Assembly: GCA_963575745.1 (NCBI GenBank)
Contig: CAUYUJ010000291.1
Location: forward strand, 1-64,000
DNA from: Prorocentrum cordatum
Lineage: Eukaryota
Length of the DNA stretch: 64,000 nt
Direction of reading: 5' to 3'
Shown here: positions 15,551 to 53,230 of the stretch, one piece after another
Position numbering within the stretch: position 1 is the first letter of the stretch
Layout of the letters: each line of letters starts with the position of its first letter
Notes under the pieces: generated by a model
The model's database searches: none
What the model saw: the letters and a program-made list of their open reading frames with translations, nothing else
What the model was told of the DNA's origin: nothing
Made by a program: the position numbers and the translations under genes

Positions 15551-18500
15551 TCAGCACGCCGCCCATGCCTTGACCGCCTGCTCCCACCTGCGAGCTGCAC
15601 CGCCCTCTCGGCGGAAGTAATCAGCAAGTCGCTCATGGGAGCCGGCAACATTCAAGCAGTTCTTCAGCACCATGGGCCCCCAAGACTGTCTCGGGCGGCC
15701 TCTTCTCCATTTCCCAAGAAGGCTCTTGAGAACCAGACCGCCCGGCTCAAACACCGAGCTTCTGACTGGATCTTCGTCTGGTCTTCTCGCCAAATGGCCC
15801 ATGTACAACATCTGTCTACGCGCAAGACTATGGCTCAGAGGCGTCTGTTGGCTGATCTGCAGAACTGCACGGTTCGACACCCGACTGATGTACGACGGAG
15901 AGACTCTGCAAATACGTCTGAGACAATAATTCTGGAACCCGTCGAGCCGTCTTCGCTCGGCCTGGTTAAGACACGCAGTGAATAATACATACGTGAGTTT
16001 GGAAACAACGCAAGCATTAAATATACGTAGTTTCTGTCTCCTACTCAAAGTCGAATGCGACCATATTCTTGCAAGCACCTTGAAGTCACTTCTGGCCGCC
16101 CCAATTCTCCGACTCAGTTCTGTGCCTATGCGCCCGTCCGAAGCAAGAGACGTCCCGAGATAAGTTAATGATTGCTTGGCTGGGATGGGGACCTCGTTGC
16201 GTCCCAAAATATCAGCTTCGGTCCTTACTTTCATAAGTTCCAACTTGCCCCAATTGAACTGCAGCCCGCACTGGCCCCCGCACTCCTCAATGCAGCGCAT
16301 CAGCTCTTGAACGAGGGCTGGGTCGGAGTCTATGAGCAACGTGTCGTCCGCGTACACGAGCTCCCTCGCAAACTGGTTTTCAGGTATCAGTCCGGCACGA
16401 CTCTGCTGAAGCAGCGCGTGCGCGTCCGTGAGAAGCGTCGTCATCACAATGGTGAACAGAAAAGGGGACAGCGGACAGCCTTGGCATATGCCGTACCTCT
16501 GCTGATGGATGCTGGACGTGGCCCCGAAGTCCCTCACGACGAACTTGCGCTCGCTGTAAATCGACACGACGACGTCCACGAAAACTTCTGGGCAACCAAA
16601 TCTCCGCAAAGACCTGGCGAGCGCGTCCGGCGAGACCGAGTCGAATGCCTTGGCCCAGTCGAGTGCCAGGAACAAGCGACTTGCATCTCTTGTTGACCAT
16701 GTGTCGTCCAGCACCCGGCGGGCTAGGAACACTGCGTCTGCCGTGCCCCGCCCGGAGCGGAACCCGAATTGGGTTCGCCAGATGCGGTCTTCGGCCCCCG
16801 CCTGCTTCAGCCTCTGGAGCAGGATGGTTGCGAACAATTTGTAGCCGATGGGCGAGATACTGATGGGGCGGTAGTTCTCGCATTCTGCAGGGTCGCCCTT
16901 CTTGAACAGCATCGACACCCTCGCATGCCTCCAAGCTTCTGGGATCTTACCTTGTCTCCAAACGTCGGTGTAGAATTTTGCCAGATAGCTCGGGAGACCT
17001 CCCGCGTCGCTCGCCGCTGCTTTCCAGAATTCGGGTGGCACCCCGTCAAGGCCAGAAGCGCGTCCTCGCTTCAATTTCGCAGCTGCGGCCTTCACCTCCC
17101 CCACTGTGATATCACCCATGGAGATGGGCAGGTCGTTGTCGGCAATCCGTGCAGCAACTGGCGGTGCCACTGACGTGGGTCTGACTGCCCACTGCACCCT
17201 CTCGAGGTAGTCGGCCAGAGTCTCAGCACGCTGGTCCGTCTCCACAATGCCCTTGTTGACGTCACGAAGCCTGCCCTGTCTGCGGACAGGGCCTTTCCGG
17301 AGCCTCCTAATCTGATTCCAATCAGCGGATTCCGTGACCGATTCGATCCAAGCGGCCTTGTCCCTGGCAACCGAAGCGCGGATTTTCTTCGACAGGCGCT
17401 TCTCCTCGTCAGTGTCGCCCTGCCTTCTGGCGCTCCCACGGCGCTCGATCAGCCCCAGCGTTCCGGCGCTCGTCCACGGCCTTGTGGTCCGCCTCGGAAG
17501 GAATGGCAACGTGCGTTCGGCAGCGTGATGAAAACCGTCCACGATACGACTCCAACCAAGATCGACATCCTCGCCTCCAGCTGCTGTGTCCTCGAAGCCC
17601 TCCAAAGCATTCAACATGTTCACGTTGAAAAAGCAAGCGGCGAGTGGGTCGGAGAGGGCTGTGACATCAAGGCGTGGACTCTGACTCGCAGGCGCCGTCT
17701 TCTCAACTGACATACGGACGCACGCAGTCAACAAGAAATGATGGGTCGACAACGGCACGTCGTGCCTAGCAGCCACGCCAGTGATGTCCTGGAGAAAAGT
17801 CCTCTCGCAGAGTACGAAATCGATCTGCGAGTGCGTCGAGGATCCAATTTGTAGCCCGGCAGGCGTACCCACGTTGTAGTTAGTGACAAGGTTGTGATCC
17901 GGCACGTCAAAAAATGTGTTTGCAACGCACATGTTCAGATTCTCGCACATCTCAACCATGAGGTGCCGGTTGGCGTCTTCCTTGCACGTCTGGTGGGGGT
18001 GTTTGAAAATATAGGGCCCCACCGCGTCACTCTCTCCATCGAGTTGGCCATACAACTTTGCATTCATGTCTCCTAACACAAGCTTGGGTCCATGAGCGGA
18101 TCTTGTGGAAACGAATTCTGACAAGCTCGTGAAGAAGTCAAACCGCCGCCGGAACTCGTAACCGCTGTGCGGCGCGTATGCAGAGAAAATAACAGCTTTA
18201 CCTCCTGGGATCCGAAGCTTGAGCGATGCCATGCGGTCCGTCGCCTGGCAAAATCCAACCACAGAGTGCCTGAAACTTGGATGTACGATGAAGCCCACTC
18301 CAGCCCGCTCGTCCTCTGGGTCTCCCGCACCGCCGGAAAGGACAACGAGGTAGCCGGAATCCGTGACGTACGTGATAGATTTTGATGTCCATGTCTCCTG
18401 TAGGCACAAGATCTTGATATGTAATTTATCCATGATGGATTCTAGCTCAATTTGTTTCGAGTCTGTATGCCCTTCGATGTTCCAAGATGCAATGTTGAAT

Positions 18501-18607
18501 TCGTCAGCCGTGGCAGGGCGTAAACGACCACCCCGAGCCGCAGAAAGTGACAACTTGGCTTGGCCAGCTGGATGTCCACATACTGCAGGTGAAACGTCAT
18601 TGCTCAC
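15551..18607 (-). CDS. LINE ORF2: APE-type endonuclease plus reverse transcriptase (1018 aa from a GTG)
   Basis: EN motifs IASWNIEG, LCLQETW, GVGFIV, SAYAP, LGDMNA, QIDFV; RT motifs NYRPIS, QFGFR, LDWAKAFDSV, QGCPLSP, YADD, YLG; RTE-type C-terminus YMGHLAR...RGRPRQSW. Confidence 0.97.
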   Translation of the reverse strand: MSNDVSPAVCGHPAGQAKLSLSAARGGRLRPATADEFNIASWNIEGHTDSKQIELESIMDKLHIKILCLQETWTSKSITYVTDSGYLVVLSGGAGDPEDERAGVGFIVHPSFRHSVVGFCQATDRMASLKLRIPGGKAVIFSAYAPHSGYEFRRRFDFFTSLSEFVSTRSAHGPKLVLGDMNAKLYGQLDGESDAVGPYIFKHPHQTCKEDANRHLMVEMCENLNMCVANTFFDVPDHNLVTNYNVGTPAGLQIGSSTHSQIDFVLCERTFLQDITGVAARHDVPLSTHHFLLTACVRMSVEKTAPASQSPRLDVTALSDPLAACFFNVNMLNALEGFEDTAAGGEDVDLGWSRIVDGFHHAAERTLPFLPRRTTRPWTSAGTLGLIERRGSARRQGDTDEEKRLSKKIRASVARDKAAWIESVTESADWNQIRRLRKGPVRRQGRLRDVNKGIVETDQRAETLADYLERVQWAVRPTSVAPPVAARIADNDLPISMGDITVGEVKAAAAKLKRGRASGLDGVPPEFWKAAASDAGGLPSYLAKFYTDVWRQGKIPEAWRHARVSMLFKKGDPAECENYRPISISPIGYKLFATILLQRLKQAGAEDRIWRTQFGFRSGRGTADAVFLARRVLDDTWSTRDASRLFLALDWAKAFDSVSPDALARSLRRFGCPEVFVDVVVSIYSERKFVVRDFGATSSIHQQRYGICQGCPLSPFLFTIVMTTLLTDAHALLQQSRAGLIPENQFARELVYADDTLLIDSDPALVQELMRCIEECGGQCGLQFNWGKLELMKVRTEADILGRNEVPIPAKQSLTYLGTSLASDGRIGTELSRRIGAARSDFKVLARIWSHSTLSRRQKLRIFNACVVSKLTYVLFTACLNQAERRRLDGFQNYCLRRICRVSPSYISRVSNRAVLQISQQTPLSHSLARRQMLYMGHLARRPDEDPVRSSVFEPGGLVLKSLLGKWRRGRPRQSWGPMVLKNCLNVAGSHERLADYFRREGGAARRWEQAVKAWAAC

Positions 18608-18622
18608 GCACAGTTGGCGCCC

Positions 18623-36959: not shown

Positions 36960-37630
36960 GGGGTCAACAGTAATTATTCTTCACAAGCGAGAAGTCAACA
37001 ACAACAACAACAGAAGCAACAACAGCAACAACGACAGCAGCAAAGACTACAGTCACAGCAACAAAACAGCCACGACAACGACGAGAACAACAACAACAAC
37101 AGCAACAACAACAACAACAACAACAGCAGCAGCAGCAGCAGCAGCAACAGAAACAACGACAATCATTTTTACGTCTGTTCGCTCTTACCTGCTCGTGTGC
37201 CTTTCAACACGTATATCCCAAACCCTCGATGCCCTCCTTCTTCGTCTTCGATCGTAACTCCTTGAGGGCGCAGCTTCCCTACCTGCCGCGCGGCGCTGGC
37301 GCAGCCCCGACAACAGGGGAAGAGAGGGCGGATGGAAAGGTGGAGGGAGAAGGATGGAACGCGGGAGAGAGTAGCAGGAGGGGGGCCAAGAGCAGAAAGC
37401 ACGCGGCAGAACCACGCGGGCCAAGAAGGCCCCTTTGGGCGCGCTCAGGGCCTCTGGGCTGTGTCCGAGAGCCTCGGTGGGCAGGGGAAGAGAGGGCGCA
37501 TGGAAGGAAGGGGCGAGGGGGGCCTGGAAGTAGATGGAGTACGAGAGAGAGAGAGAGAGAGAGAGAGTGGCAGGAGGAGGGGGGCCAGGAGCAGAAGGCA
37601 CGCGGCAGAACCGCGCGGGCCAGTGAGGCC
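36960..37630 (+). repeat. Dispersed copy of the unit tandemly repeated at 50150-53230
   Basis: (CAA)n followed by TGTTCGCTCTTACCTGCTCG...CGTATATCCCAAAC...CGTCTTCGATCG. Confidence 0.8.
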
Positions 37631-39881
37631 CCTCTGGGCGCGCCTGGGGCCTTTTTGGGGCCGTGTCCGAGGAGCCCCGGTGGGCAGCGTGGCCGAGGAC
37701 CCGTGCGGGCGCGCCGAGGGCCTCCGTGGGGTTGCGTCCCGGGGGCCTCCGTGAGCAGCGAGTCGGGAGCCCCTGTGGTGCGGGGGCCCTTTCTGGCCAG
37801 GAGGAGGAGGAGGAGGAGGAGGAGGAGGAGGAGGAGGAGGAGGAGGAGTGCAAGCCCTCGCGTCATATCTGACATCCTATCCCTCCCATCCCTTACCATG
37901 GCGTAGATCCCCTCTCTACTCGCACAGTCGGATGTCGAGCAGGGCAATGATCCCGAAAGGGTACGCGATGCATTGTAGAGCACGGCATGGCATGGCGTAG
38001 AAGAGCACCGCAAAGCGTAGTATCAACCTAGCATTGCATTGCATGCCGTGGCATGGCACGGGAGAAATGACGCCAGCGCTGCAGCGGGAGCACGAGTCGA
38101 AACGAGCGGAAACGCGGAAATGAGGCCAGCGCTGCAGCGAGAGCACGATTCGGAACGAGCGGAAGCACGGAAATGAGGCCACCGCTGCAGCGGGAGCACG
38201 ATTCGGAACGAGCGGGGCCCGAAAATGAGGCCGGCGCCTCAGCAAGAGCAGCATTTTGAAAAAGTGCAGGCGAAAACCCATTTCCGGGGAAACCTGTGTG
38301 TAAAAATACAGTACGCGGGGGGGGGTCGAGCACTTTCAAATCGTCATCAGGGAAAGAGGGAGAGTAGTATACATATTGAGTAATTGTAGAGGAGGAGGAG
38401 GAGGAGGAGGAGGAGGAGGAGGAGGAGGAGGAGGAGGAGGAGGAGGAAGGGGGAGGAGGAGGAGGAGGAGGAGGAGGAGGAGGAGGAGAGGAGGGAGGAG
38501 GGGGAGGAGGAGGGGGAGGAGGGGAGAGGTGGCATCTGGGAGCAGATTGCGAGAGCGCATCGGCCCGGGGAGGCGGGCCGCCGCCGCCGCTGCTGAGCTG
38601 CAAAGGGGGCCTCGAGCGAGAGCGCCGTTCCCAAATTCGGGGGGTTCCCTGGCCAGGGGATCTCGAAGTACGGGGGCCACTGCACTCGTGGCCGGGCCTG
38701 CGCCAACTGATCTGGATCACGAGAAAGTCTAGCGAGAGCGCCGCCCCGGAGTTCGAGGGCCTCTCTGGCCAGGGGCTTTCGGGATACATCTTGAGAAGCA
38801 TCGAGCGAGAACCGTTGTCCCCGCGTCTGGGCCTCAGCCAACCTGCTTGAAGTACGAGAGAGTCACGAGCGAGAGCGTCGTTCTTGAGTTTGGGGGCCTC
38901 TCTGGCCTGGGCCTCTGGGAGTACTGTCCTCGCGACACGTCAAAGCGAAACTCAGAAGACGGCGAGCGTCGGGCCCGACAAGTTAGTTACGAAAGACGAC
39001 GAGGCCGCACCGGGCGAAGTTAGTTAGCGAGAAAGCGAAAGCGCCGAGAGGACGCAAGGCTGAAGTTAGGACCTCCGCGTGGTAGCAGCATGGTCCGTTC
39101 GTGCATTCCACGTCCTGATCTATCACGCTGGCAGAGCAGCGCGATGTCACGCGCACCAAAAAAAACACCAGGGAGTGCTGCCACAAAGCGGAATCACATG
39201 CGCATGATAACCAGGATGAGCGCGCGATTCAATTGCGAATGCGATTCAGACTGCAATTCCGAAAACGGACGCGACATACCAAGTTATATTGCCAAAGGAC
39301 AACCTGAGATACTGGAATTGGCATTGCCCATATGATTTCGTTTTTGTGCGAATCCTGTGAGCCAACACAGATGTTGTCATATTCGCGCAACTATTTTGTG
39401 TTTTTTTGTTTCTGAATATTTTGCGTTGGTAATCGTGGTCGTATTCCCCGCTACGTGTATTGCCTGATGAAAACCAGTACTATTGCTTTTTTTCACCGCA
39501 GTTTGTTTATTGCACGAATGTTCACGACGTTGCGCATATCCGCATGAATATGGGCATCGTTGCGTACGGCACGTTACCGTCATAACGCAGATTCCATTTA
39601 ATAGTAATACTGGATGCGGGTATGACACCATATTGGAATATTATGATGTTTTTGTTTAAACGTGAATGAAACGTAATAACAACATAATGTATACCGTGAG
39701 TTGGGTTGATGTCTGGTTGTCCTTATTGTTTGTTTCGTAATGTTATCGGTCGCGCTACTACCGCTATCAATGCAAATGCTTGGGCTCGTGCTCATTCTCG
39801 CCTTCAGGCCCAAGGAAGCGTCGCATTCCAGCTGGTGACCCTGATTTTCCCTTGCCACGGTTCCGACGTACCTTTAGAAGC

Positions 39882-42800
39882 ATGTCGGCCTCTTCCTCGG
39901 GCGCTGCTCGCCGCAGGGCGATTGCAGCCATGTTCGGGGAACCTCCTGGCGCCACCCCCGAGAAGAAGCAGAAGGTGTTGGGCGTTGTCTCGCTGACCCC
40001 TGAGCAAAAAAGGATCAAAGATATCAAGGAGGGCAGGGGGCACATCCTGATTTTTAAACGTTTACCATGCGAACATATACGTGCGCAGCATTTGTTTTAC
40101 ATGGGGCGAAGCATCCTTATAAAAAGGGACACAATTGGGAACATCAGAACGAAGCCCGCCCGCCCCCGCCCCCCAAGGGCGTCGACGTTTTCAAGCGGCA
40201 GGCCGACGCGACAGCCGAGGCCCAGCGACAGCTCGCCGAGGAGTGGGGCCTCGAGTGGCCCAGGCCGCAGCCAACGGGGCCACCGCGCAAGGGGGGGCCG
40301 ATCCCCAGAGCCCAAAAATGGCAGGATAGTCTTTACCAGTGGCACGCGGGAGTTGTGAAGGGCGAGCTCCCCAAGCCCTCGGCGCCCCCGCCGCTGCTGT
40401 TCCCGTCGGACTGGGGCCATAAGAAATGCCCCGCGTGGGCGTACCAGGCGAGGGCGACGACCCCCGACAGAGACCCCCAGGCCACTCCGAAAGCGCAGAA
40501 AGGGGAAACCCAAGACGATCTGACGCCCGAGAACGGCCCGCAGGGCACTCCGAAGGCGGAGGGCGGGGACACCCAGGGCGTGGTGAACGACGAGTGCGCG
40601 AAGCAGCCCGAGAAGAAGCGGAGTTATCATTTGTACCCGCCCGAGGTGGTTGATTTCTATTTCGGTTTCGAAAAGGACATGGGGGGGGCCCGCTCGAAAG
40701 TTGTCGACTTCGTCAAGAGTCACTACCCCTCCCTGTTCCCGAAGACCTTCTGTGAAAGCCGAGTTCGCGCCTGGGAAAAGACGCGCCGTAGTCCTGACAG
40801 CGGGAGCGCTGCTGCTGGGCGGGGATGGCGTTTGGGCCAGACTGTCTTGCCAGTCGGCCATTTGGCATTTATCGGCTCCCTCATCGTATCGCAGTACAAC
40901 GCCGGAATTCCCATGACCGCGCGGCTCCTCGTTCCCCTCGTGGCAGGGGCATTGGTGGCGAAGGGGCTCGGTGACAAGGTGGTCTCGAAGCAAATGCGGC
41001 GGGCACTCGCACAATGCATCAGCAAGCTTGTTTGGGCATGCATGTGTGAACGCATGCGTGTATAAATGTCTGCACAGCACGCGAGATCTTACATGTACGT
41101 ACTTACTTGCATGCATGTGGCCCGTTCGTTTGTATGTGTATGCTTGCCCACCGGCATGTACGCGCTGCTGTATAACAGTGCACGTTCTGTGTTTTCGTTG
41201 AGGGGGAAGAAGGAAGCGGACACCGAACGTGAACAACACGCACACACGTAGCAGGGTTGTCCTACGAACGTGGCCGAAACTTGGCGCGAGCGCGCATAGA
41301 GAGAAAAGTGCCACCCTGGGCAGTCGCAAAAACAACCCGGAGAAACAAACGTGCACCGACCTAGGCGTTTACTAAAAGTCCCCGTGGCCGCGGAGGACAA
41401 GGAGGGGGAGGAGGAACGGGAGGAAGAAGGAAAGCCAACTCGCGTATGGTACGACTTCGGCCTGAAACGTATCCGGACCGCGGCTGGATGGGAAGTTCCG
41501 CAGAAGGTTCTGGCGGAGTGCCCAAACAGCCACATCGATAAATCCAACATAGCAAGAGAAAAGCGAGAGGGGGGAGGAGGAACAGGAGGAGGAAAGAGAA
41601 AAGGAGGGAGGAGCCGACAGACGCGCAAGAGTGAGACAGTACATGATCAACCTAAGGTTGGAAGCATGCGTATGTGTAGCGTGTGTGTTCTGTGTCTGCT
41701 GGCGTGCATGTGCGCGTATCTGGATATGTGCACTGATGTATGGTGTGTCTACGTGTGCGCAAAATGCACCAGTAAGCTCTTTTCACTGCGCCCTGTCGTC
41801 AGGGCTATGCTTCGACGTAGGTCCGATACAACATTCAAAACTCGTCTGGAAACGCATCGCACTAGTGTTCGCACAGTGTTCGGTCCAGACTCTTACCCTA
41901 ACCAGCCAATCGCCCTTCTAAGCGCCACTCCGCTCAGTCTTATCATCCACCCTTCGGCTCTCAGATGCCGAACGCCTTCTCCAGGATGTTTTGGGCATTC
42001 TTGTCGAGACTACCCACGGCCGCCTGCGCATCTTCACCGCCCTCCACATCGTGGTCAGCCTCGCTTGCTGGCTCCATCTCCGCTGCCTCCTCGGCCTCCC
42101 ACGCTGCGCCCAATCCAAGCTCCTTGTCAGCTGCTTCCGCTGCGGCTTTCGCCTCAGCAGCTTTCCTTTCTTGGTAGCGCAATGTTTTGTAAGGGTTGCA
42201 CACCAAGCACCCTCCTCCGGACCAGCGGCACTTGGGGCAACCGTACAAGTAGTTGCCACTTCCGTTGCAGCCGTCAGGCTGCGGCGCCTTCGATTTCGCC
42301 TTCCCCTTCGCTTTGCCCTTCCCCTTCGCCTTCTCCTCCTCTTTGGCCTTCTCTTCCCCTTTCGTCAACCCTTCATCCTCTTCATCATCCTTCGCCTCAT
42401 CATCCTCCTTCGCCTTATCCTCCCCCTTCGCTTTCTCATCCCCTTTCGCCTTCCTTCCATCCTCCTCCTTCGCCCCGTCCACTTCCTTCGCCTTCTCCTC
42501 CTCCTCCTCCTCCTCTTTCGCCTTGTCCTCCGCCTTCACCTTCGCCTTCTCCTCCTCCTCCTCCTTCGCCTTCTCCTCCTCCTCCTCCTTTGCGTTCTCC
42601 TCCTCGTTCGCGTTCGCCTTCGCTTCCTCCTCGACGTCCTTCTCCTCGCCCTGCGCCTTTTCCTCGTCTGCCTGCGCATCGGGGGACTTGCTGATCTTCG
42701 TCAGGGTTCCCCCGAATAGCTCCTTTTTGGCCTCCAGGGCTTCCGCCTCCTGGAAGAGCGCCCCCTGCTGCGGGCCCCAAGCCTGCGCCAAGCCTGACTC

Positions 42801-44840
42801 GGCCCATCCGCGGCACAGCTCCTGCCCAGAAGGACGACGAGGAAAACGAGGAGGACGACGAGGAAAACGAGGGAATGGGAGATGGAGGAGGGGGAGGAGA
42901 AAAGCGAGGAAAACAGGGACGAGGGGCAGGAATACCCACTTTCGATCGATTGTTTTGTTGATGTGCGCGCGTTTCGTTTCGCTCGAGGGCCTGGCGGGTG
43001 AAGGGCCACAAACTCGCAGAGGGGGGCCGGGTGATTCGGGAAAGATGCGCCTCCTTGTCTTTCTTAGAGATCTCCTCGAAGGCAGTAGACAGAAAATGGC
43101 AGAAAGGAGTCTTCAAGGCAACGAGGTTCAGGTCGATCGTCACAGAGGTGCTCGGGACACTCTGGTCAGCAAGCTTCAAGGCAACTTGACCCGCGAACCA
43201 CTCCGTGGCCGCAGTGCTGATGAGGTTCTTGAACTGGGCGTTGACGGCAACGTCCAGAGGTTGCAAGAAAGGGGTGTAGTTTGCCGGAACGAACAGCAGG
43301 ATGAGTTGCGGAAGCGTCTGCTTCACCCAATCCAGAAATCCAGCGTCACGGTGCGAAGAGTAAACGTCGAGGATGAGCACCATGCGTTGCCCAAGTGGCA
43401 AGCCGTTCTTCTCCACCATAAGCGTGTAGTATGTCTCCATGAGATGGGTGACGAATTCCTTCATGGTTTGCACTGTGCTCCAGTGGCTCTCAGAATGGGC
43501 GTGGAAGATATGTTTTTCGAACTGCTTCTGCGTCTGGGAGGTCGGCTCGCACTGCTTCGTTTTCCCTCCCCAGATCACTTGGCACGGCCTGATGAGCTCG
43601 CCTGCCGCTGAAATCCGCCGACCCTGTCGGCGTGTGGAATGGGCTGTTCCGTTCGTCGTCGTCGCCGTCGCCGCCAAGCGAGCCAGCCAAATCGACGCGC
43701 CCTAACCCAACCAAAGCAAAATTGAGGAACGTCGTCATCGTCGTCGTCGTAGTCGTCGTTCAGGGTCGGCGGCGCTCGCCGTAAGGCCTTTCGAATCGTC
43801 GGTATGACCGTGTATTGCCGCTTGTCACCAGCCCCATGGAAGACCGTCTGCTGCCCCTTCCCGCTGGGTGCCCAACCCCGAGGCTTCAAAGGGAGTAAGA
43901 AGACACCTGTTTCGTCCATGTTCACCACAAGCTCTCGTGGGATGGAGTGGGAAACGACGCAATAGACCAGACGCAAGAGGAACATATGAGCTGTAGCCTT
44001 CAGGTCCACCTCGTTCGGTTGATGCTTCTTGGTGCGAGTCGGCCGCTTGTAGGACATCTTCAGAACTACTTTGCAGAATCGCTGCACCCACCTGTCCGTG
44101 ATGCTGACCTTCCCATCGTGGCCTTTCTTTTCGTTCCCTTTTGTTTCGGTCACCACCTGGGAGCGCATTTGCTAATCGACCGAGCGGCGGAGGAGGACGA
44201 GGAGGATGCACCGGAGGCGGGGAGGGGGATGTGTCAAAGCATGCGCTCTCAAGCGTGGGAAGAGCTCCGCGGGCGAAAGGGGCAGAGGATTTATTAACAT
44301 GCTCCGGCGCTGACGCCCAGAGCGGTCGCACAGCAAATACGCTCCCAGGTGGTGACCGAAACGAAAGGGAACGAAAAGAAAGGCCACGATGGGAAGGTCA
44401 GCATCACGGACAGGTGGGTGCAGCGATTATGCAAAGTAGTTCTGAAGATGTCCTACAAGCGGCCGACTCGCACCAAGAAGCATCAACCGAACGAGGTGGA
44501 CCTGAAGGCTACAGCTCATCTGTTCCTCTTGCGTCTGGTCTATTGCGTCGTTTCCCACTCCATCCCACGAGAGCTTGTGGTGAACATGGACGAAACAGGT
44601 GTCTTCTTACTCCCTTTGAAGCCTCGGGGTTGGGCACCCAGCGGGAAGGGGCAGCAGACGGTCTTCCACGGGGCTGGTGACAAGCGGCAATACACGGTCA
44701 TACCGACGATTCGAAAGGCCTTACGGCGAGCGCCGCAGACCCTGAATGACGACGATTACGACGACGACGATGACGATGAGGACGTTGCTCCGTTTCGCTT
44801 TGGCTGGGTTGGTGCATTTCGATTTGGCTCACTCGCTTGG

Positions 44841-44873
<33 letters not shown>

Positions 44874-46526
44874 ACGGATCAGCCCATTCCACACGCCGAC
44901 AGGGTCGGCGGATTTCAGCGGCAGGCGAGCTCATCAGGCCGTGCCAAGTGATCTGGGGAGGGAAAACGAAGCAGTGCGAGCCGACCTCCCAGACGCAGAA
45001 GCAGTTCGAAAAACATATCTTCCATGCCCATTCTGAGAGCCACTGGAGCACAGTGCAAACCATGAAGGAATTCGTCACCCATCTCATGGAGACATACTAC
45101 ACGCCTATGGTGGAGAAGAACGGCTTGCCACTTGGGCAACGCATGGTGCTCATCCTCGACGTCTACTCTTCGCACCGTGACGCTGGATTTCTGGACTGGG
45201 TGAAGCAGACGTTTCCGCAACTCATCCTGCTGTTCGTTCCGGCAAACTACACCCCTTTCTTGCAACCTCTGGACGTTGCCGTCAACGCCCAGTTCAAGAA
45301 CCTCATCAGCACTGCGGCCACGGAGTGGTTCGCGGGTCAAGTTGCCTTGAAGCTTGCTGACCAGAGTGTCCCGAGCACCTCTGTGACGATCGACCTGAAC
45401 CTCGTTGCCTTGAAGACTCCCTTCTGCCATTTTCTGTCTACTGCCTTCGAGGAGATCTCTAAGAAAGACAAGGAAGCGCATCTTTCCCGAATCACCCGGC
45501 CCCCCTCTGCGAGTTTGTGGCCCTTCACCCGCCAGGCCCTCGAGCGAAACGAAACGCGCACACATCAACAAAACAATCGATCGAAAGTGGGTATTCCTGC
45601 CCCTCGTCCCTGTTTTCCTCGCTGTCCTCCTCCCCCTCCTCCATCTCCCACTCCCTCGTTTTCCTCGTCGTCCTCCTCGTTTTCCTCGTCGTCCTTCTGG
45701 GCAGGAGCTGTGCCGCGGATGGGCCGAGTCAGGCTTGGCGCAGGCTTGGGGCCCGCAGCAGGGGGCGCTCTTCCAGGAGGCGGAAGCCCTGGAGGCCAAA
45801 AAGGAGCTATTCGGGGGAACCCTGACGAAGATCAGCAAGTCCCCCGATGCGCAGGCAGACGAGGAAAAGGCGCAGGGTGAGGAGAAGGACGTCGAGGAGG
45901 AAGCGAAGGCGAACGCGAACGAGGAGGAGAACGCAAAGGAGGAGGAGGAGGAGGAGAAGGCGAAGGCGGAGCAGACGGCGAAGAAGGAGGCGGAGAAGGC
46001 GAAACAAATTGACGAGACGATGGAGGAGGATGGAGGGAAGGCGAAAGGGGATGATAAAGCGAAGGGAGAGGTTAAGGCGAAGGAGGATAAGGCGAAGGAT
46101 GATGAAGAGGATGAGGGGATGGCGAAAGGGGAAAAGAAGGCCAAAGAGGAGGAGAAGGCGAATGGGAAGGACAAAGCGAAGGAGAAGGCGAAATCCAAGG
46201 CGCTGCAGCCTGACGGCTGCAAAGGAGGTGGCAATTACTTGTACGGTTGCCCCAAGTGCCGCTGGTCCGGAGGAGGGTGCTTGGTGTGCAACCCTTACAA
46301 AACATTGCGCTACCAAGAGAGGAAAGCTGCTGAGGCGAAAGCCGCAGCGGAAGCAGCTGACAAGGAACTTGGACTGGGCGCAGCGTGGGAGGCCGAGGAG
46401 GCAGCGGAAATGGAGCCAGCAGGCGAGGCAAACCACGAAGTGGAGGGCGGTGAAGATGCGCAGGCGGCCATGGGTAGTCTCGACAAGAGTGCTCAACACA
46501 TTCTGGAGAAGGCGTTCGGCATCTGA
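39882..46526 (+). CDS. pogo-superfamily DD37D transposase, copy A (~896 aa); exons 39882-40028, 40178-40978, 44349-44711, 44915-45472, 45705-46526
   Basis: HTH-like RSYHLYPPE..ESRVRAW; CENP-B-type HTH GIPMTARLL..|..ITDRWVQR..KMSYKRPT; catalytic NMDETG, LILDVYSSH, QPLDVAVN (37 residues between D2 and D3); E/K-rich tail with GCPKCRWSGGGCLVC. Three joins are phase 0 (GA-AG, GT-AG, GA-AG); the 44712-44914 insert must also be removed. Confidence 0.78.
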
Positions 46527-48611
46527 GAGCCGAAAGGTTGATGACAAGGCTGAGCGGAGTGGCGCTTAGTTGCAAATTAGGGTCAGAGTCTGGACCGAAC
46601 ACTGTGCGAGCACTAGTGCGATGCGTTTTCAGACGAGTTTTGAATCTTGTATCGGACCTACGTCGAAGCATAGCCCTGGCGACAGGGCGCAGTGAAAAGA
46701 GCTCACTGGTGCATTTGCGTACACGTAGACATACCATACACACATCAGTGCACATATCCAGATACGCACACAGGCACAACATTAGACACATAACACACAC
46801 GCTACACCTACTCATGCTGCCAACATTAGGCTTATCATGTTCAGTATCACTCGTGCGTGCCTGTCTGCTCCTGTCCCCTCTTCTCTTCCCTCCTTATGTT
46901 CCTCCTCCCCTCCCACTTCTTTTCTCTTTCTTGTGTTGGATTTATCGTTGTGGCCGCTTGGACAGTCCGCCAAAACCTTCTGCGGAACTTCCCATCCAGC
47001 CGCGGGCGGGAGACGTTTCATCAGGCCGGATTCGTATCATACGCCATTTGTTTTCCTACTTCTTCCCGTTCCTCCTCCTCCTCCTCCTCCTTGTCCTCCT
47101 CCTCCGCCTCCTCCCCCTTGTCCCCCTCCTTCCTCTCCACGTCCACCGGGATTTGTTTGGAAACGCCCAGGGCGGCACATTTTTGTTGTTCCGGGTCGTT
47201 TTTGCGAGTGCCCAGGGTGACACGTTTCTCTCTGTGCGCAGAGTTTCGGCCACGTTCGTAGGACAACCCTACTACTTGTGCGTGGTGTTCACGTTCGGTG
47301 TCCGTTTCTTCCTTCTCCGTCAACAAACAGCACGGAACGCGCTCCGTCATTCAGTAGTGCGTACATGCGGGGTGGCGCGCGTGCACATACAAGCGAACGG
47401 GCCACATGCATGCAAGTAATACGTACATGTCGGGTCTCGCGTGCTGCGCCCACAATTCTACACTGCATGCCCAAACGAGTTTGCTGATGCATTGCGCGGG
47501 CGCCCTCCGCATTTGCTTCGAGACCACCTTGTCCCCGAGCCCCTTCGCCACCAATGCCCCTGCCACGAGGGGAACGAGGGGCCGCGCGGTCATGGGAATT
47601 CCGGCGTTGTACTGCGATACGATGAGGGAGCCGATGAATGCCAAATGGCCGACTGGCAAGACAGTCTGGCCCAAACGCCATCCCTGCCCAGCAGCAGCGC
47701 TCCCGTTGTCAGGACGATGGCGCGTCTTTTCCCAGGCGCGAACCCGGCTTTCACAGAAGGTCTTCGGGAACAGGGAGGGGTAGTGTTTCTTGACGAAGTC
47801 GACAACTTTCGAGCGGGCCCCCCCCATGTCCTTCTCGAAACCGAAATAGAAATCAACCACCTCGGGCGGGTACAAATGATAACTCCGCTTCTTCTCGGGC
47901 TGCTTCGCGCACTCGTCGTTCACCACGCCCTGGGTGTCCCCGTCCTCCGCCTTCGGAGTGCCCCGCGGGCCTTTCTCGGGCGTCAGATCGTCTTGGATTT
48001 CCCCGTTCTGCGCCTTCGGAGTGGCCTGTGGGTCTTTGTCGGGGGTCGTCGCCCTCGCCTGGTACGCCCACGCTGGGCACTTCTTATGGTCCCAGTCCGA
48101 CGGGAACAGCAGCGGCGGTGGCGCCGAGGGCTTGGGGAGCTCGCCCTTCACAACTCCCGCGTGCCACTGGTAAAGACTATCCTGCCATTTTTGGGCTCTG
48201 GGGATCGGCCCCCCCTTGCGCGGTGGCCCCGTTGGCTGCGGCCTGGGCCACTCGAGGCCCCACTCCTCGGCGAGCTGTCGCTGGGCCTCGGCTGTCGCGT
48301 CGGCCTGCCGCTTGAAAGCGTCGACATCCTCAGGGGTGGGGGCTGCGTTTTCATGTTCCCTAGCGTGCCCCCCCTCTTGTAGGGATGCACCTTCCTAGGT
48401 AAAGTACGCGTTGCACGCGTGCAGTGTCGGATGTAACAACAAATTGTATTGCGTGTCCCCCGCCCTCCTCGAGATCCTTGGCTCTTTTCTCCTCAGGGGT
48501 CAGTGAGATACAGTTCAACACCTTCTGCTTTTTCTCGGGGGTGGCGCCAGGAGGCTCCCCGAACATGGCTGCGAGCGCCTTGCGACGAACGGCGTAGGAG
48601 GAAACCGACAT
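41961..48611 (-). CDS. pogo-superfamily DD37D transposase, copy B; exons 48611-48468, 48328-47528, 44156-43794, 43611-43054, 42821-41961
   Basis: Same motifs and splice positions as copy A; exon 2 is 801 nt in both; no stops or frameshifts in the predicted exons. Confidence 0.78.
43612..43793 (+). mobile_element. 182-bp hairpin/asymmetric-IR insertion in transposase copy B
   Basis: AATC duplicated at the ends; CCGCCGACCCTG pairs with CAGGGTCGGCGG; removal restores TVIPTI-SAAGEL. Confidence 0.8.
44712..44914 (-). mobile_element. 203-bp orthologous insertion in transposase copy A
   Basis: GATT at 44708-44711 and 44911-44914; hairpin CGCCGAC-AGG-GTCGGCG. Confidence 0.8.
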
Positions 48612-48929
48612 GCTGTCGGCGGTCTGTTGGGGCCGTTGCAAAAAGGAATGCAGGTCCACCACATGGGATGCGACGAGCTCTTGAGCCTGGAGCTCGCGAG
48701 CGTACCAACATTCTATCTCAATCGTGCGATACGCCGGTGTATCCAAGGTTCCCCAAACAATGCTTGCACTCAGGGTTTCTTATTTGTTTTCTAGGGGGGT
48801 GGGCCTGGGAGCGTAACTACCGGCTCTGTTGCCCCCGTCGCCGCTTCGTCGCCGCCTGTCGTTTGGGCGTGGGTGCTGGTCTGGCGGTGCGCCGTCGCCG
48901 CCCCGTCGCTGCCTCTTCGCCGCCCGAGA

Positions 48930-49262
48930 TGTACCACGTAGATTGCACAACATAGATTGCACCACATAGCTAACACCACAGATTGCACTACGTAGCTTGC
49001 ACCACATATATTGCACCATATGGACAGCATCGCAGCTATTGCACCACATGTTTTGCACCACGCAGCTCCCACCACAAACTTTACACCACATAGGTTGCGC
49101 CACATCAATATGGGCGCATACATCGCACCACGCATCTTGCACCACATAGGTTGCGCTACATATATTGAACCACGTACATCGCACCACATGTGTCGCACAA
49201 CCTTGATGGCACCACGTAGATTGCACCACGTAGCTCGCATCTCATATATTGCACGACATAGG
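48930..49262. repeat. Degenerate TTGCACCACATAG minisatellite
   Basis: Direct reading. Confidence 0.85.
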
Positions 49263-50149
49263 TTTCCCCACGGGCATTGCTAGGAACCAGAGAACCAGTA
49301 TTGAAGGCCCACGCTGGGCAACAGCAGCCAGCATAATATCATATGGTTTGGGTAAAGATGCTTCGGATAAAAAAATCTAATGCAATACGAACTTGACGGA
49401 GCATGAGAATGTGGTTGGACTGTTGCCGCATATTACATACTACGTGCCTTCCGTACCGAAACCATTGAATCCCAGCGGGCGCGCGATTCATAATTAGGTG
49501 AAGGCACGGCCGCAAGGGACAAGTTCAGGCGACGGCGGGAATGACTAAGCGAAGCGCAGAATAATAGTTAATTGTTAGGAAAGCGAAAGCGAAAGCGAAG
49601 CTCCCCCGAAAAAGTTAATAGTTAAGAAAGCGAAATCGAAAGCGAACCGCTCGGAAAAAGTTGATAGTTTCGCTTTGAGGTGTCGCGGGGACAGTACATC
49701 TTGACGAAGTATCGAACGAGAGTCCTTGTCGTCGTAGTTGAGCGTCCGCCAACTTGATTGAATCACGCGAAGGTCTCGACCGAGTGCGTCGTTCCTGAGT
49801 TCGGGGGCCTTCCTGGCCAGGGTCTCTCGGAGTAAACCGTGGGGAAGTATCGAGCAGGAACCCTTGTCGTCGTGGCTGGGCTTCCGCCAACTGGATTGAA
49901 TTGCGAGGAACTCTCTAGCGAAAACGCCGTTCCTGAATTCGGGGGCCTCTCTGGCCAGGAGGTATCGGGGTCAGTTGCGAGGAGGCATCGAGCGTGAGCC
50001 GTTGTCGTCGTAGCCGGGCTTCTGCGGGCGCACATTTACCATCGAGCCCGCGCTCGAGCGGGAGCTTTTTTTTCATAGGAGTTCCAGCAGGCGTCGGGGC
50101 GAGAGCGCGCAGAACAATTTCCGGATATCAGCGCTGATCATTTTTAATC

Positions 50150-52001
50150 AACGACAACGACGACGACGACAACAATCACATTAATATTGTTCGCTCCTAT
50201 CTGCTCGCAGCCCACTCAACGCGTATATTCCAAAACCCTCGATGCCCGCCCTCTCCGTCTTCGATCATGCCCCCTTGGGGTGTATATCTTTCTTACCTGC
50301 AACGTGTATTTCGCGCCGCCCCTAAGGCAGGGGAAGAGAGGGCGCATGGAAGGAAGGGGCAAGGGGGAGGGAAGTGGATGGAGCACGAGAGAGTAGCAGG
50401 AGGAGGGCTAGGAGCAGAAAGCACGCGGCAGAACCATGCGGGCAGATCGGGCGGGCAGACCCTAGCCGGCGGGTCGGGAAGGCGGGCCCAAGCGGACAGG
50501 TCAAGCAGGCGGGTTGCAAATAAATCGTCCGGAACTCCACAGCAAAAGCGCGATGCTTGAATGTCGAGGGCGCGGCGTCTGAATAAATGGCGAGGAAGCC
50601 CCGCGGGAGAGCGCGATTCCCGTGTCTATTTTGAAGACGTCCCGCGCGAGAGCGTGATTTGGGAGAGAATTGTGAGGGAAGGCAGGGGCCGTTGTTGTGG
50701 AAGTTCGGGGGCCAACAACGGAGTTTGGTCACCCTTCGCCTTCCCATGTAAAAAACTGGGTGCGAGCACCGGGGGGAAGCACTTAAATTGAGACACTACA
50801 GTGGTTACTGGGCAGGGGGGATCAACAGTAGTTATTTACTTGACATGAGAACCAAGCAGCAAAAGCAACAACAGCAATAGCAGCAGCAGCATAAACAACG
50901 ACGACGACAACAACAGCAGCAACAACAACAACGACGACGACGACAACAGCAACGCCGACGACGGCACACATTTTACGTCTGTTCGCTCTGACCTGCTCGC
51001 GTGCCATTCAACACGTATATCCCAAACACTATGTACTTGTCGTTTTTGTCTTCGATCGTATCCTCTCTTGGGCGTGCATCTTCCTTGCCTGCCGCGCGTA
51101 GCTGGCGCGGCTCTTAAAACAGGGGAAGGAGGGGGGAATGAAGAGACAAGGGGGAAGGAGAAGGATGGAACGCGATAGAAATTCACAGGAGGAGGGTTTG
51201 GAACAGGAACACAACCGGCAGAACCAGCCTGGCGTGTCGGGCGGGCGGGGTCAATTGGGCAAGTCGCGCGGGCGGGCCCAGACGGCCAGGTCGAGCGGGC
51301 GGGTCGGTAAAGCGTCAACACATCATGGAGGAAAGGAATTTCGAGCGATAGCGCGATTCCCAAGTATATCGCAAGGAGATCCAAAGCGAGATCGTGATTC
51401 CTGAGTTTAAGGGGCACGGCGCCGCAATACATTCGGAGGAAAGAGAGAGAGAGCGTGATTCTTGGATAAACTATGAGGAAGTCCCGCGCGAGAGCGCGAA
51501 TTTAAAATGCACTGTGGCAGCATAAAGGCGGAGCCGCTGAGGTTGTAAACCGGAGTTTCGGGGCGCAGTTTGACGTCCGCAGATTCTCCCTGATAGGGAA
51601 CAGGGTGAGAGCCCAAGGAGGAACACTTCAATGGAAAAAGTACAAGTGTCACCGGGGGGCAGCAACAAGAAGAAGAAGAAGAAGAAGAACAACAACAACA
51701 ACAACAACAATAACAACGACAGTATCAGCGACAGCAACAACAACAGCAACAATAATTTTAGGACCGTTCGCCCTTATATGCTCGAGTGTCCAATAACGTG
51801 TATTTCCCAAACCCTCCATACCCGCCCTCTTCGTCTTCGATCGAACTTCATTCGGGGGGTATGCCTTTTTTCCCTGCAGGCCGGGCCCCGGCAAGCGGCG
51901 GGGCGGCCGCGGACCGTCGGCCTGGCCAGCGGCAGCGCTGATCGGCGGGGCGGCCGCGGACCGTCGACCCGACCCCAAGAGGGACGGACAGGGGACCGAC
52001 C

Positions 52002-52043
<42 letters not shown>

Positions 52044-53230
52044 TCGAAGACGACGGCGACGACGACGACGACGGCGACGACGAGCGAAAGCGAGAGCGAG
52101 AGAGAACGACAGCAGGGCCACGAAGGGCACGAAATAGGCCACGAAGGGCGACAGCGGGGACACGAAAGGAATGCGTATGGGGCCACGAAGAGCGGGGGCC
52201 ACGAAGTGCAGATAATGCGAGGCCACAGAAGGCAATTATAGGACCAATGAGGGTAGCAACTGGGCCACGTAGGACAGTGAGGGGGCCACAAACGGCGACA
52301 GCGGGGCCACGAAGGGCACGCACATGGGGCCACAACGGGCGCGACTCCTGGGTGCCTGGGTGTCGGGACCGCGGCGCGTAGGCAAATTGCAGGAAATTCC
52401 AACGCAAGGCCATTTTTCAGTAAGTTGCAAGCTAGTCTCCAGCGAGAGCGCGACTCCAGAGCGCCGGGAGAGCGATTCCTGAATAAATTGTAAGGAAGTC
52501 CCAAGCGAGAGCGCGATTCTTGAATCAAATGCGAGGAAGTCTCGGGCGGGAGCGGGGGTCATGGCTAAATTGTGAGGAAGTCTGAGGCGAGAGCCGTTGT
52601 TGTTGTAACCCGGGGGCCAGGGGCCCAGTTTGAGCAGGAAGATTTCCCCTGTCCAAAAACAGGGTGCGAGCGTCGAGGGGCACACTTTGATTGAGGAAAA
52701 ACAGTATGCACCGGTGGGGGGGATCAACAAAAGTTATTCTTCAGAAATCAGAATTCAACAACGTACACAACCACAACAACACCGACAACAACAGCAGTCA
52801 TTTTAACACTGTTCGTTCTTACCTGCTCGCGTCCCATTCAAGGCGTATATCCCAAACTCGCGATACTTGCCCTCTTCGTTTAAGATCGTACACCCTCGGG
52901 GGGTATATCTTCCTTACCTGTCGCGTGGGCGGATGGAAAGGGTGGTGGAGAAGGATGGAACACAAGAGAAATTAGCAGGAGGAGGGCTAGGAGCAAAGAG
53001 CACGTGGCAGAACAAGACGACCTGATCGGGTGGGTAGACGACCCTAACGGGCGGGTCGGGCAGGCGGGCCCAAGCGGCCAGGTCGAGAAGGAAGGTTGCT
53101 GAAGCGTGATGATTGCATGAATCGCCAGGAGGTCTCGAGCGATCGCGCGATTCCCAGGTACATCGTGAAAAGGCAAAGCAAGAGCGTGATGCCTGAGTGT
53201 CGAAGGCGCGGCGTTTGAATGCATTCGCGA
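50150..53230 (+). repeat. Four diverged tandem copies of a ~0.8-1.0-kb unit
   Basis: Shared core after (CAA)/(GAC) runs at ~50188, 50980, 51765, 52810. Confidence 0.82.

Follow-up and report, generated by a model that had tools for sequence, protein, structure and literature searches.

Few natural loci use hairpin RNA to turn a transposon against itself, and most of those that do hold broken copies. Mu killer of maize is described (PMC3440606) as an inverted duplication of transposase-gene sequence giving a hairpin RNA of several kilobases (kb) that feeds silencing; the duplication is partial and non-coding and is read from the promoter of a neighbouring gene. Composite Ac insertions of maize, made by alternative transposition, contain inverted copies that give rise to hairpin or double-stranded RNA (dsRNA) and small RNAs (10.1101/2020.01.07.897926), and New Stabiliser (NSt) of Antirrhinum consists of two intact Tam3 copies placed head to head, with hairpin RNA and small RNAs (10.1101/2024.06.24.600476); aberrant transposition appears there as a known route to such inverted duplications (10.1101/2020.01.07.897926; 10.1101/2024.06.24.600476). 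Here we describe a near-palindrome of about 8.9 kb in a 64,000-nt stretch (the window; positions 1 to 64,000 of contig CAUYUJ010000291.1) of Prorocentrum cordatum, a GC-rich marine eukaryote. The locus is predicted to consist of two five-exon pogo-like (DDE_1) transposase genes, arranged as mirror images and interlocked with each other, an assignment well supported by homology.

Comparison with these systems revealed both shared and distinct features. As in Mu killer, transposon sequence is duplicated in inverted orientation, and a hairpin RNA is predicted here; unlike in Mu killer, the two copies are complete, have open frames and show purifying selection, and the antisense arm lies in the gene's own intron. 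The comparison with Mu killer drawn in the initial annotation consequently fits in its logic but not in its anatomy. NSt and the Ac insertions likewise contain intact or fractured copies of a DNA transposon in inverted orientation; their copies belong to the hAT family and stand side by side with the gene wholly in one arm, whereas the pogo-like DDE_1 copies here are interleaved via intron 2. In primate sex-chromosome palindromes, gene conversion between the two arms keeps them alike on either side of a short unique spacer. The present locus resembles them in its long arms, short spacer, concerted gene evolution and patchy divergence, but a gene copy there lies within one arm, while each gene here spans the centre. 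Hairpin-prone inverted duplications of transposons are known; a pair of genes both intact and interleaved appears to be new here, a suggestion that has thin support from a literature search for interlocked or interleaved palindromic gene pairs, in which nothing relevant was found.

Palindrome and interlocked transposase genes

An inverted-repeat search over positions 38000-50000, gapped blastn and alignment of the arms delimited two arms of about 4.3 kb each around a unique centre, with blocks of high complementarity that include the four listed here.

39879-44182, no strand: left arm (repeat search, gapped blastn, arm alignment)
44183-44322, no strand: unique centre of 140 nt, the predicted hairpin loop (repeat search; bridged by a contig of the public DNA run X1)
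44323-48614, no strand: right arm (repeat search, gapped blastn, arm alignment)
43730-44182 / 44323-44775: inverted block I4, 453 nt, 97% complementary, 140 nt between its arms
42485-43673 / 44853-46041: inverted block I1, 1189 nt, 96%
41918-42406 / 46081-46569: inverted block I3, 489 nt, 94%
40164-41042 / 47464-48342: outer inverted block I2, 879 nt, 96%

The inner gapped alignment (41400-44182 versus 47085-44323) showed 91.8% identity over 2815 columns, with 147 mismatches and 84 gap positions, and the outer one (39879-41409 versus 48614-47121) showed 87.1% over 1539 columns; in the global arm alignment, weak likeness persisted beyond the arms to about 39790 on the left and about 48705 on the right. 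No third copy of the arm sequence was found within the window, which contains two copies only. Blocks I4, I1 and I3 reproduce the near-identical inverted arms that the initial annotation had reported, with a loop of about 140 nt and a match reaching about 44182 and 44323, and the arms found here are twice the length listed there.

Long-read libraries are known to produce palindromic chimeras in error, so we considered whether a fold-back chimeric long read or a mis-join had produced the palindrome. No X1 contig lies on 40134-41084, as such an origin would allow, though a gap of this kind proves nothing. However, a short-read X1 contig of 270 nt crosses the centre, spanning 44149-44418 with 2 differing letters and bridging both arms, and overall divergence between the arms is 8-13%, reaching 33-37% of aligned bases in their outer non-coding parts (divergence K 0.44-0.51). 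These two observations together make an assembly artefact very unlikely. X1, which differs from the window at 14 of 507 letters over 47242-47748, possibly represents the source sample, a close strain or another haplotype, and its independence from the assembly is not certain.

Exon boundaries of the plus gene were taken from the arm alignment and the homologues and then tested by translation, and the minus gene was obtained by mapping the plus model through the arm alignment. The predicted genes are as follows.

39882-39974, plus: plus gene exon 1, ATG, 31 codons, donor CAGAAG/gtgttg
40178-40978, plus: plus gene exon 2, 267 codons, N-terminal part similar to P0002 residues 7-122, donor GACAAG/gtggtc
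40979-44333, plus: plus gene intron 2, 3355 nt, GT..AG, phase 0, holding minus exons 3-5 in antisense and the centre
44334-44717, plus: plus gene exon 3, 128 codons, NMDETG motif with the putative first catalytic Asp, GC donor (/gcctta), boundary less certain
44903-45475, plus: plus gene exon 4, 191 codons, DDE_1 core, LILDVYSSH and LQPLD, GC donor (/gcgcat)
45708-46526, plus: plus gene exon 5, acidic linker, GCPKCRWSGGGCLVCN cysteine motif, stop at 46524-46526
48522-48611, minus: minus gene exon 1 (arm alignment, translation)
47528-48328, minus: minus gene exon 2 (tblastn of P0002, translation)
44172-47527, minus: minus gene intron 2, 3356 nt, holding plus exons 3-5 in antisense and the centre
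43788-44171, minus: minus gene exon 3 (tblastn of P0002, translation)
43051-43623, minus: minus gene exon 4, DDE_1 core (tblastn of P0002, translation)
41961-42818, minus: minus gene exon 5, stop at 41961-41963
41762-41901, minus: conserved island, 96% between the arms, directly 3' of the minus gene stop, with its mirror copy at 46577-46716 for the plus gene; probably the 3' untranslated regions (UTRs) of the minus and plus genes, respectively

Both composite frames are intact from ATG to stop, encoding 889 amino acids (aa) in the plus gene and 901 aa in the minus gene, with no internal stop and no frameshift. Splice sites are the same in the two copies (donors gt, gt, gc and gc; acceptors ag), and the exon-2 donor and exon-3 acceptor are both in phase 0, which is kept in both copies. 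The acceptor AG at 44332-44333 (mirror 44172-44173) sits 10 nt inside the arms.

Two alternatives for the exon boundaries around intron 2 were rejected. A second exon-2 donor at 41041, prompted by the end of the protein fragment P0032, is in phase for the plus gene only; the minus copy has a TAG in the way, and there is no mirror acceptor. Positions 44298-44333 show a weak gapless likeness to the exon-2 end of relatives, but a coding role is blocked by the stop immediately before them (44295-44297) and by the absence of an AG in phase 0, and the likeness was treated as chance.

Identification of the encoded proteins rested on domain and homology searches. Pfam DDE_1 was recognised on the open reading frame (ORF) at 44780-45880 with 32.3 bits (cut-off 22; E = 9.4e-8), and the relative P0002 scored 34.7 bits with the same domain. 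P0002, a 629-aa protein from a 3.4-kb contig, was the most useful of 18 relatives returned by a word-index protein search. No near-identical annotated or transcript protein appeared in the word-index searches, the best match being 58% identical; the search with the exon-2 ORF against longer proteins was weak, since it gave no match and missed P0002. Protein Atlas matches were DDE_1 clusters only, from mixed eukaryotes.

tblastn placed P0002 on the plus strand in order, with residues 7-122 at 40634-40981 in the left arm and residues 134-245 at 44382-44720, 242-431 at 44912-45490, 427-471 at 45702-45836 and 520-546 at 46242-46322, all four in the right arm; on the minus strand the matches followed the mirror order. 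This colinearity puts the N-terminal and catalytic parts of one protein on the same strand and on opposite sides of the centre, with the N-terminal exons 1-2 at the outer end of one arm and an antisense copy of the catalytic part in between. The exon 1-2 region, presumed to be DNA-binding, shares homology with the N-terminal ends of P0002, P0024 and others. In the catalytic part, NMDETG of exon 3 (read by eye) and LILDVYSSH and LQPLD of exon 4 are identical in both copies, and the exon-4 Asp residues, in LDVY and QPLD, correspond to the invariant columns D86 and D124 across the 11 sequences of alignment A1; we take the acidic residues of NMDETG, LDVY and QPLD to be the catalytic triad. The gene model of the initial annotation, in which the exons are split by a large intron across the centre, agrees with the P0002 colinearity, the splice phases, the intact frames and the intron positions in relatives. 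The gene models likewise bear out its proposal that each large intron carries the reverse complement of the gene's own downstream exons, that is, the exons of the partner.

The predicted proteins share with pogo/Tigger DDE_1 transposases (Tc1/mariner) a DDE_1 core with NxDET, LDxxxxH and QPLD, and an N-terminal region that is colinear in relatives. They differ in having five exons, a long acidic linker and a C-terminal GCxKCRxxxGCxxC pattern (the GCPKCRWSGGGCLVCN motif, common to both copies, P0002 and P0003), and in lacking recognisable terminal repeats, a TA duplication or a Pfam DNA-binding domain. Specifically, no terminal inverted repeats or TA target-site duplication were detected, comparison of the 5' flank with the sequence downstream of the stop gave only chance matches of 9-12 nt, and the palindrome ends showed no TA pair, although the element ends may be masked by the palindrome itself. 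With neither terminal repeats nor a TA duplication detected, the status of the locus as a mobile element is not established.

Selection, probable gene conversion and the age of intron 2

Comparison of the two copies over 888 aligned codons revealed 39.5 synonymous and 57.5 non-synonymous differences (synonymous divergence dS 0.069, non-synonymous divergence dN 0.028, dN/dS 0.41). The synonymous share, 40 of 97 against 22% expected, represents a significant excess (binomial p = 2.5e-5), and both reading frames are under purifying selection. dN/dS was 0.11 in exon 4, and 7 of the 12 differences in exons 3 and 4 were synonymous (p = 0.008). All of the gapped codons in exons (14 of 14) were in frame, and in a simulation with 97 random substitutions only 1.9% of 5000 coding sequences stayed free of stops.

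These results bear on the possibility that the locus is an inert relic, a silent rearranged transposon pair whose frames are open only because the duplication or the last conversion is recent, and which makes no RNA of consequence. The presence of only two copies in the window, the repeat-rich surroundings (an ORF of a long interspersed nuclear element (LINE), satellites and microsatellites), the failure to find terminal repeats or a TA target duplication of a single element, and a central block only 1-2% diverged would all suit such a relic. However, the synonymous excess is seen overall and also in the young central block, neither copy has acquired a stop, the gapped codons are in frame, and all splice sites are kept in both copies; on balance we judge a relic rather improbable.

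Divergence between the arms (K) was distributed unevenly along them:

5' flank: K 0.51
intron 1: K 0.44
exon 1: K 0.15 (dS 0.49)
41043-41960: K 0.16
intron 3: K 0.12
exon 2: K 0.033
exon 5: K 0.057
exon 4: K 0.012
exon 3: K 0.013
intron 4: K 0.017

dS in exons 2-5 was 0.02-0.09, far under the divergence of adjoining non-coding DNA, and intron 4 is as alike as the exons next to it; selection at the protein level alone is therefore insufficient as an explanation. Blocks far less diverged than neighbouring neutral sequence are a mark of palindromes with gene conversion. The simplest reading of this pattern is an old palindrome in which gene conversion between the arms has homogenised the central block and exon 2, and in which purifying selection has acted in addition.

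To ask whether intron 2 is older, or a product of REARRANGEMENT, relatives of exon 2 were collected with HMMER from 1.84 billion representatives, which gave 42 matches at E <= 0.001, 10 of which were fetched. In seven of the ten (P0020, P0021, P0022, P0032, P0034, P0035 and P0036), likeness stops exactly at '...DK', the position of the donor, and past this point the ORF ends within 3-8 residues or continues as unrelated sequence, as expected of an intron there. The exon-2-like and exon-3-like parts are contiguous in the other three (P0024, P0030 and P0050) and in P0002. On the acceptor side, P0062 (of the P0001 cluster; 58% identical to exon 4) opens with residues resembling a translated pyrimidine tract, and its homology starts at 'SHPAQV' versus 'QIRSQV' here, the first residues of exon 3. 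These comparisons suggest that the intron-2 position predates the palindrome in this subfamily and that the rearrangement breakpoints fell in an existing intron, which would explain how the genes survived the rearrangement. In this way two working genes can remain after an inverted duplication within an intron, and the shared intron-2 position leaves open that the same layout occurs in related species. One inversion in a simple dimer, whether head-to-head or tail-to-tail, was rejected on paper as the origin of the layout, because inverting the centre of a palindrome leaves it unchanged; no single-step origin was found.

GC donor sites are present at 44718 and 45476 (mirror 43787 and 43050), that is, in two of the four introns of each copy. 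The residue following '...DK' in the seven relatives that end at the exon-2 donor is Ala (GCN) in two, P0022 and P0036, and Val (GTN) in five. The GC donors here and the Ala in these two relatives together suggest that GC-AG introns may be common in this lineage.

A metagenome scan yielded 31 related loci on contigs of 1.0-7.6 kb, with the best aligned segment 26-47% identical (26-40% for the 27 loci with a match of more than 75 query residues), and all of the loci that cover the exon 2-exon 3 junction were colinear. The only inverted repeat of at least 150 nt among them was L011:1-160, its own reverse complement (96%), and this 160-nt terminal fold-back is probably a contig-end artefact. A scan of viral contigs for relatives returned no loci.

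The start of intron 2 was itself conserved: its first 63 nt (40979-41041; 47465-47527) are as conserved as exon, with 9.4% divergence between the arms. These nucleotides are also conserved in P0032, a 72-aa fragment of another strain or species (EukProt record, labelled Pyramimonas sp. CCMP1952). P0032 has 91% identity to each of the two copies and extends 21 codons into intron 2, where 19-20 of the 21 residues are identical; it ends where arm identity breaks at a 15-nt indel (41041/47465). Presumably this EukProt record derives from a transcriptome, although no paper naming the strain was found, and P0032 gives a faint hint of a possible transcript reading into intron 2. A literature search on Pyramimonas and RNA interference found nothing relevant. 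Possible roles of the conserved 63 nt are an alternative donor, an element acting in splicing or the end of a short N-terminal isoform.

The same region bears on a different reading of the locus, in which the genes are expressed in split form and no hairpin arises. The 140-nt centre would then be a bidirectional promoter for divergent genes made of exons 3-5, starting at an internal Met (MSYKRPTRT...), while exons 1-2 would be separate convergent genes encoding a short N-terminal protein that ends in intron 2, and no RNA would contain both arms. The exon-like conservation at the start of intron 2 fits such a short protein, gene callers on the contigs of relatives give both N-terminal-only proteins (P0020-22, 289-351 aa) and proteins starting with exon 3 (P0001/P0062), and in exon 3 of the minus copy the second codon is an ATG. 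However, a stop-bounded ORF caller yields split calls of this kind at any intron. Plus exon 3 is also open for 38 codons upstream of its first Met and is homologous there to relatives (GHDGKVSITDRW versus GHDGTASITERW in P0001), the centre contains no in-frame ATG, and donor and acceptor are phase-matched in both copies. In the Tc1/mariner-pogo group, moreover, a transposase does not work if its catalytic core lacks the DNA-binding part. We therefore regard split expression, taken as a whole, as a poor prospect.

Predicted fold-back of the primary transcripts

When folded as RNA, the central 926 nt (43790-44715) formed a single near-perfect hairpin with a minimum free energy of -890.3 kcal/mol, compared with -341.7 +/- 10.0 kcal/mol for 20 shuffles (z = -54.75), and none of the shuffles (0 of 20) folded as well. 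In the predicted primary transcript of the plus gene, 41918-44182, which is antisense to exons 3-5, complements 44323-46569 at a distance of about 140 nt; by this model a transcript through intron 2 should form a hairpin of at least 2.2 kb. The complementary stretches reach 41762 and 46716 if the 3' UTR islands are counted, the minus gene is the mirror image, and the predicted primary transcripts of the two genes are exact antisense partners over about 4.6 kb. The pairing covers the splice acceptor, as had been noticed beforehand, since the AG lies within the stem.

Each gene spans the centre, so the full-length protein would be made only by splicing across the centre of the palindrome; and since the primary transcript contains complementary arms, long dsRNA would be expected whenever the locus is expressed. 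Transcription, splicing across the centre, dsRNA and silencing, like the order of rearrangements, are inferred from these features, and our reading is the following. Both genes would be transcribed from their outer ends, and full-length mRNA would arise once intron 2 is spliced out co-transcriptionally. Molecules not spliced in time would fold back or pair with the partner RNA, and the resulting dsRNA would damp the output of its own locus, by RNA interference or nuclear retention, in competition with splicing. Gene conversion between the arms would keep exons and stem matched, and purifying selection would keep the frames open. We give about an even chance to this reading as a whole, that is, an inverted duplication with interlocked genes, transcription from the outer ends, competition between splicing and fold-back, and self-damping by dsRNA.

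Several observations weigh against it. None of the 5 public sequencing runs listed is on record as RNA, and both the exon 2-exon 3 junction and transcription through the centre are predictions from the DNA sequence. In the gene models, no Pfam DNA-binding domain was detected in exons 1-2 at E <= 0.1 (40058-41065 and 47351-48394), and the boundaries of introns 3 and 4 are less certain, with GC donors in two of the four introns. Exon 2 alone gave a weak signal (10 of 26 differences synonymous, p = 0.065), so that selection is not firmly shown for the N-terminal half. Among the 31 metagenome loci, which are distant and on short contigs, no comparable palindrome was found, and in 9 of them a single alignment runs through the exon 2-exon 3 junction without an intron. 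To arrive at the layout, two or more rearrangement steps, or else a single complex event, would also be required.

Here the genes are intact, constrained and interlocked, which would tie expression and dsRNA formation to the same transcript. The reading as a self-limiting or Mu-killer-like locus is plausible as a prediction from the DNA. In a stronger form, the layout would be a selected self-regulating architecture in which splicing has to precede pairing, fold-back and partner antisense RNA feed a silencing that throttles both genes, and conversion maintains the frames together with the stem; we consider this form unlikely. Alternatively, the locus might be a host-retained silencer like Mu killer, which would direct hairpin or antisense RNA against active family members elsewhere in the genome and whose coding capacity would be incidental. 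An inverted duplication of transposase sequence is the anatomy of Mu killer, the Ac composite insertions and NSt, and the stem here is both long and closely matched. Open frames would be unnecessary in a silencer acting purely through RNA, yet the two copies show suppressed non-synonymous change, and we accordingly see little likelihood in a silencer of this kind.

If the RNA behaves as the DNA predicts, the interlocked pair would offer a compact natural setting in which to study how splicing competes with RNA folding, and how self-limitation of a DNA transposon, or of a gene descended from one, works in a marine protist. A silent locus would be no more than an unusual rearrangement.

Sequence surroundings and matches in public runs

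Another X1 contig (depth 8, 48 letters on its shorter side, 'between: not known') joins 39839 to 48755 and skips 8915 nt of palindrome; an allele or strain without the palindrome, a deletion, or chimerism of the contig may account for it. The ends 39839 and 48755 showed neither a terminal repeat nor a TA duplication, and no microhomology. Contigs of run X3 (organism B, kind of run not on record) were identical to the window, with 0 other letters, at 42682-42864, 43424-43629 and 47774-47926. These three stretches belong to exons 5, 4 and 2 of the minus gene, respectively, and are among the longest pieces listed, which possibly reflects selection in the table.

Farther from the palindrome, positions 15551-18622 on the minus strand hold a 1023-aa open frame with an endonuclease/exonuclease/phosphatase domain and RVT_1 (E = 6.7e-34), identifying a retrotransposon of the LINE type, which lacks long terminal repeats. 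Both flanks share repeat families in direct, not inverted, orientation (38604-38924 and 49693-49973; 37036-37620 and 50166-53013), so the palindrome sits inside a repeat-rich tract; one family has units of about 138 nt and the other of about 300-400 nt, with at least four repeats to the right. Directly outside the right arm, 48919-49275 is a tandem array with a 14-nt period and 23 copies, and outside the left arm there are a long (GGA)n tract and four 53-nt tandem units (38386-38530; 38064-38274).

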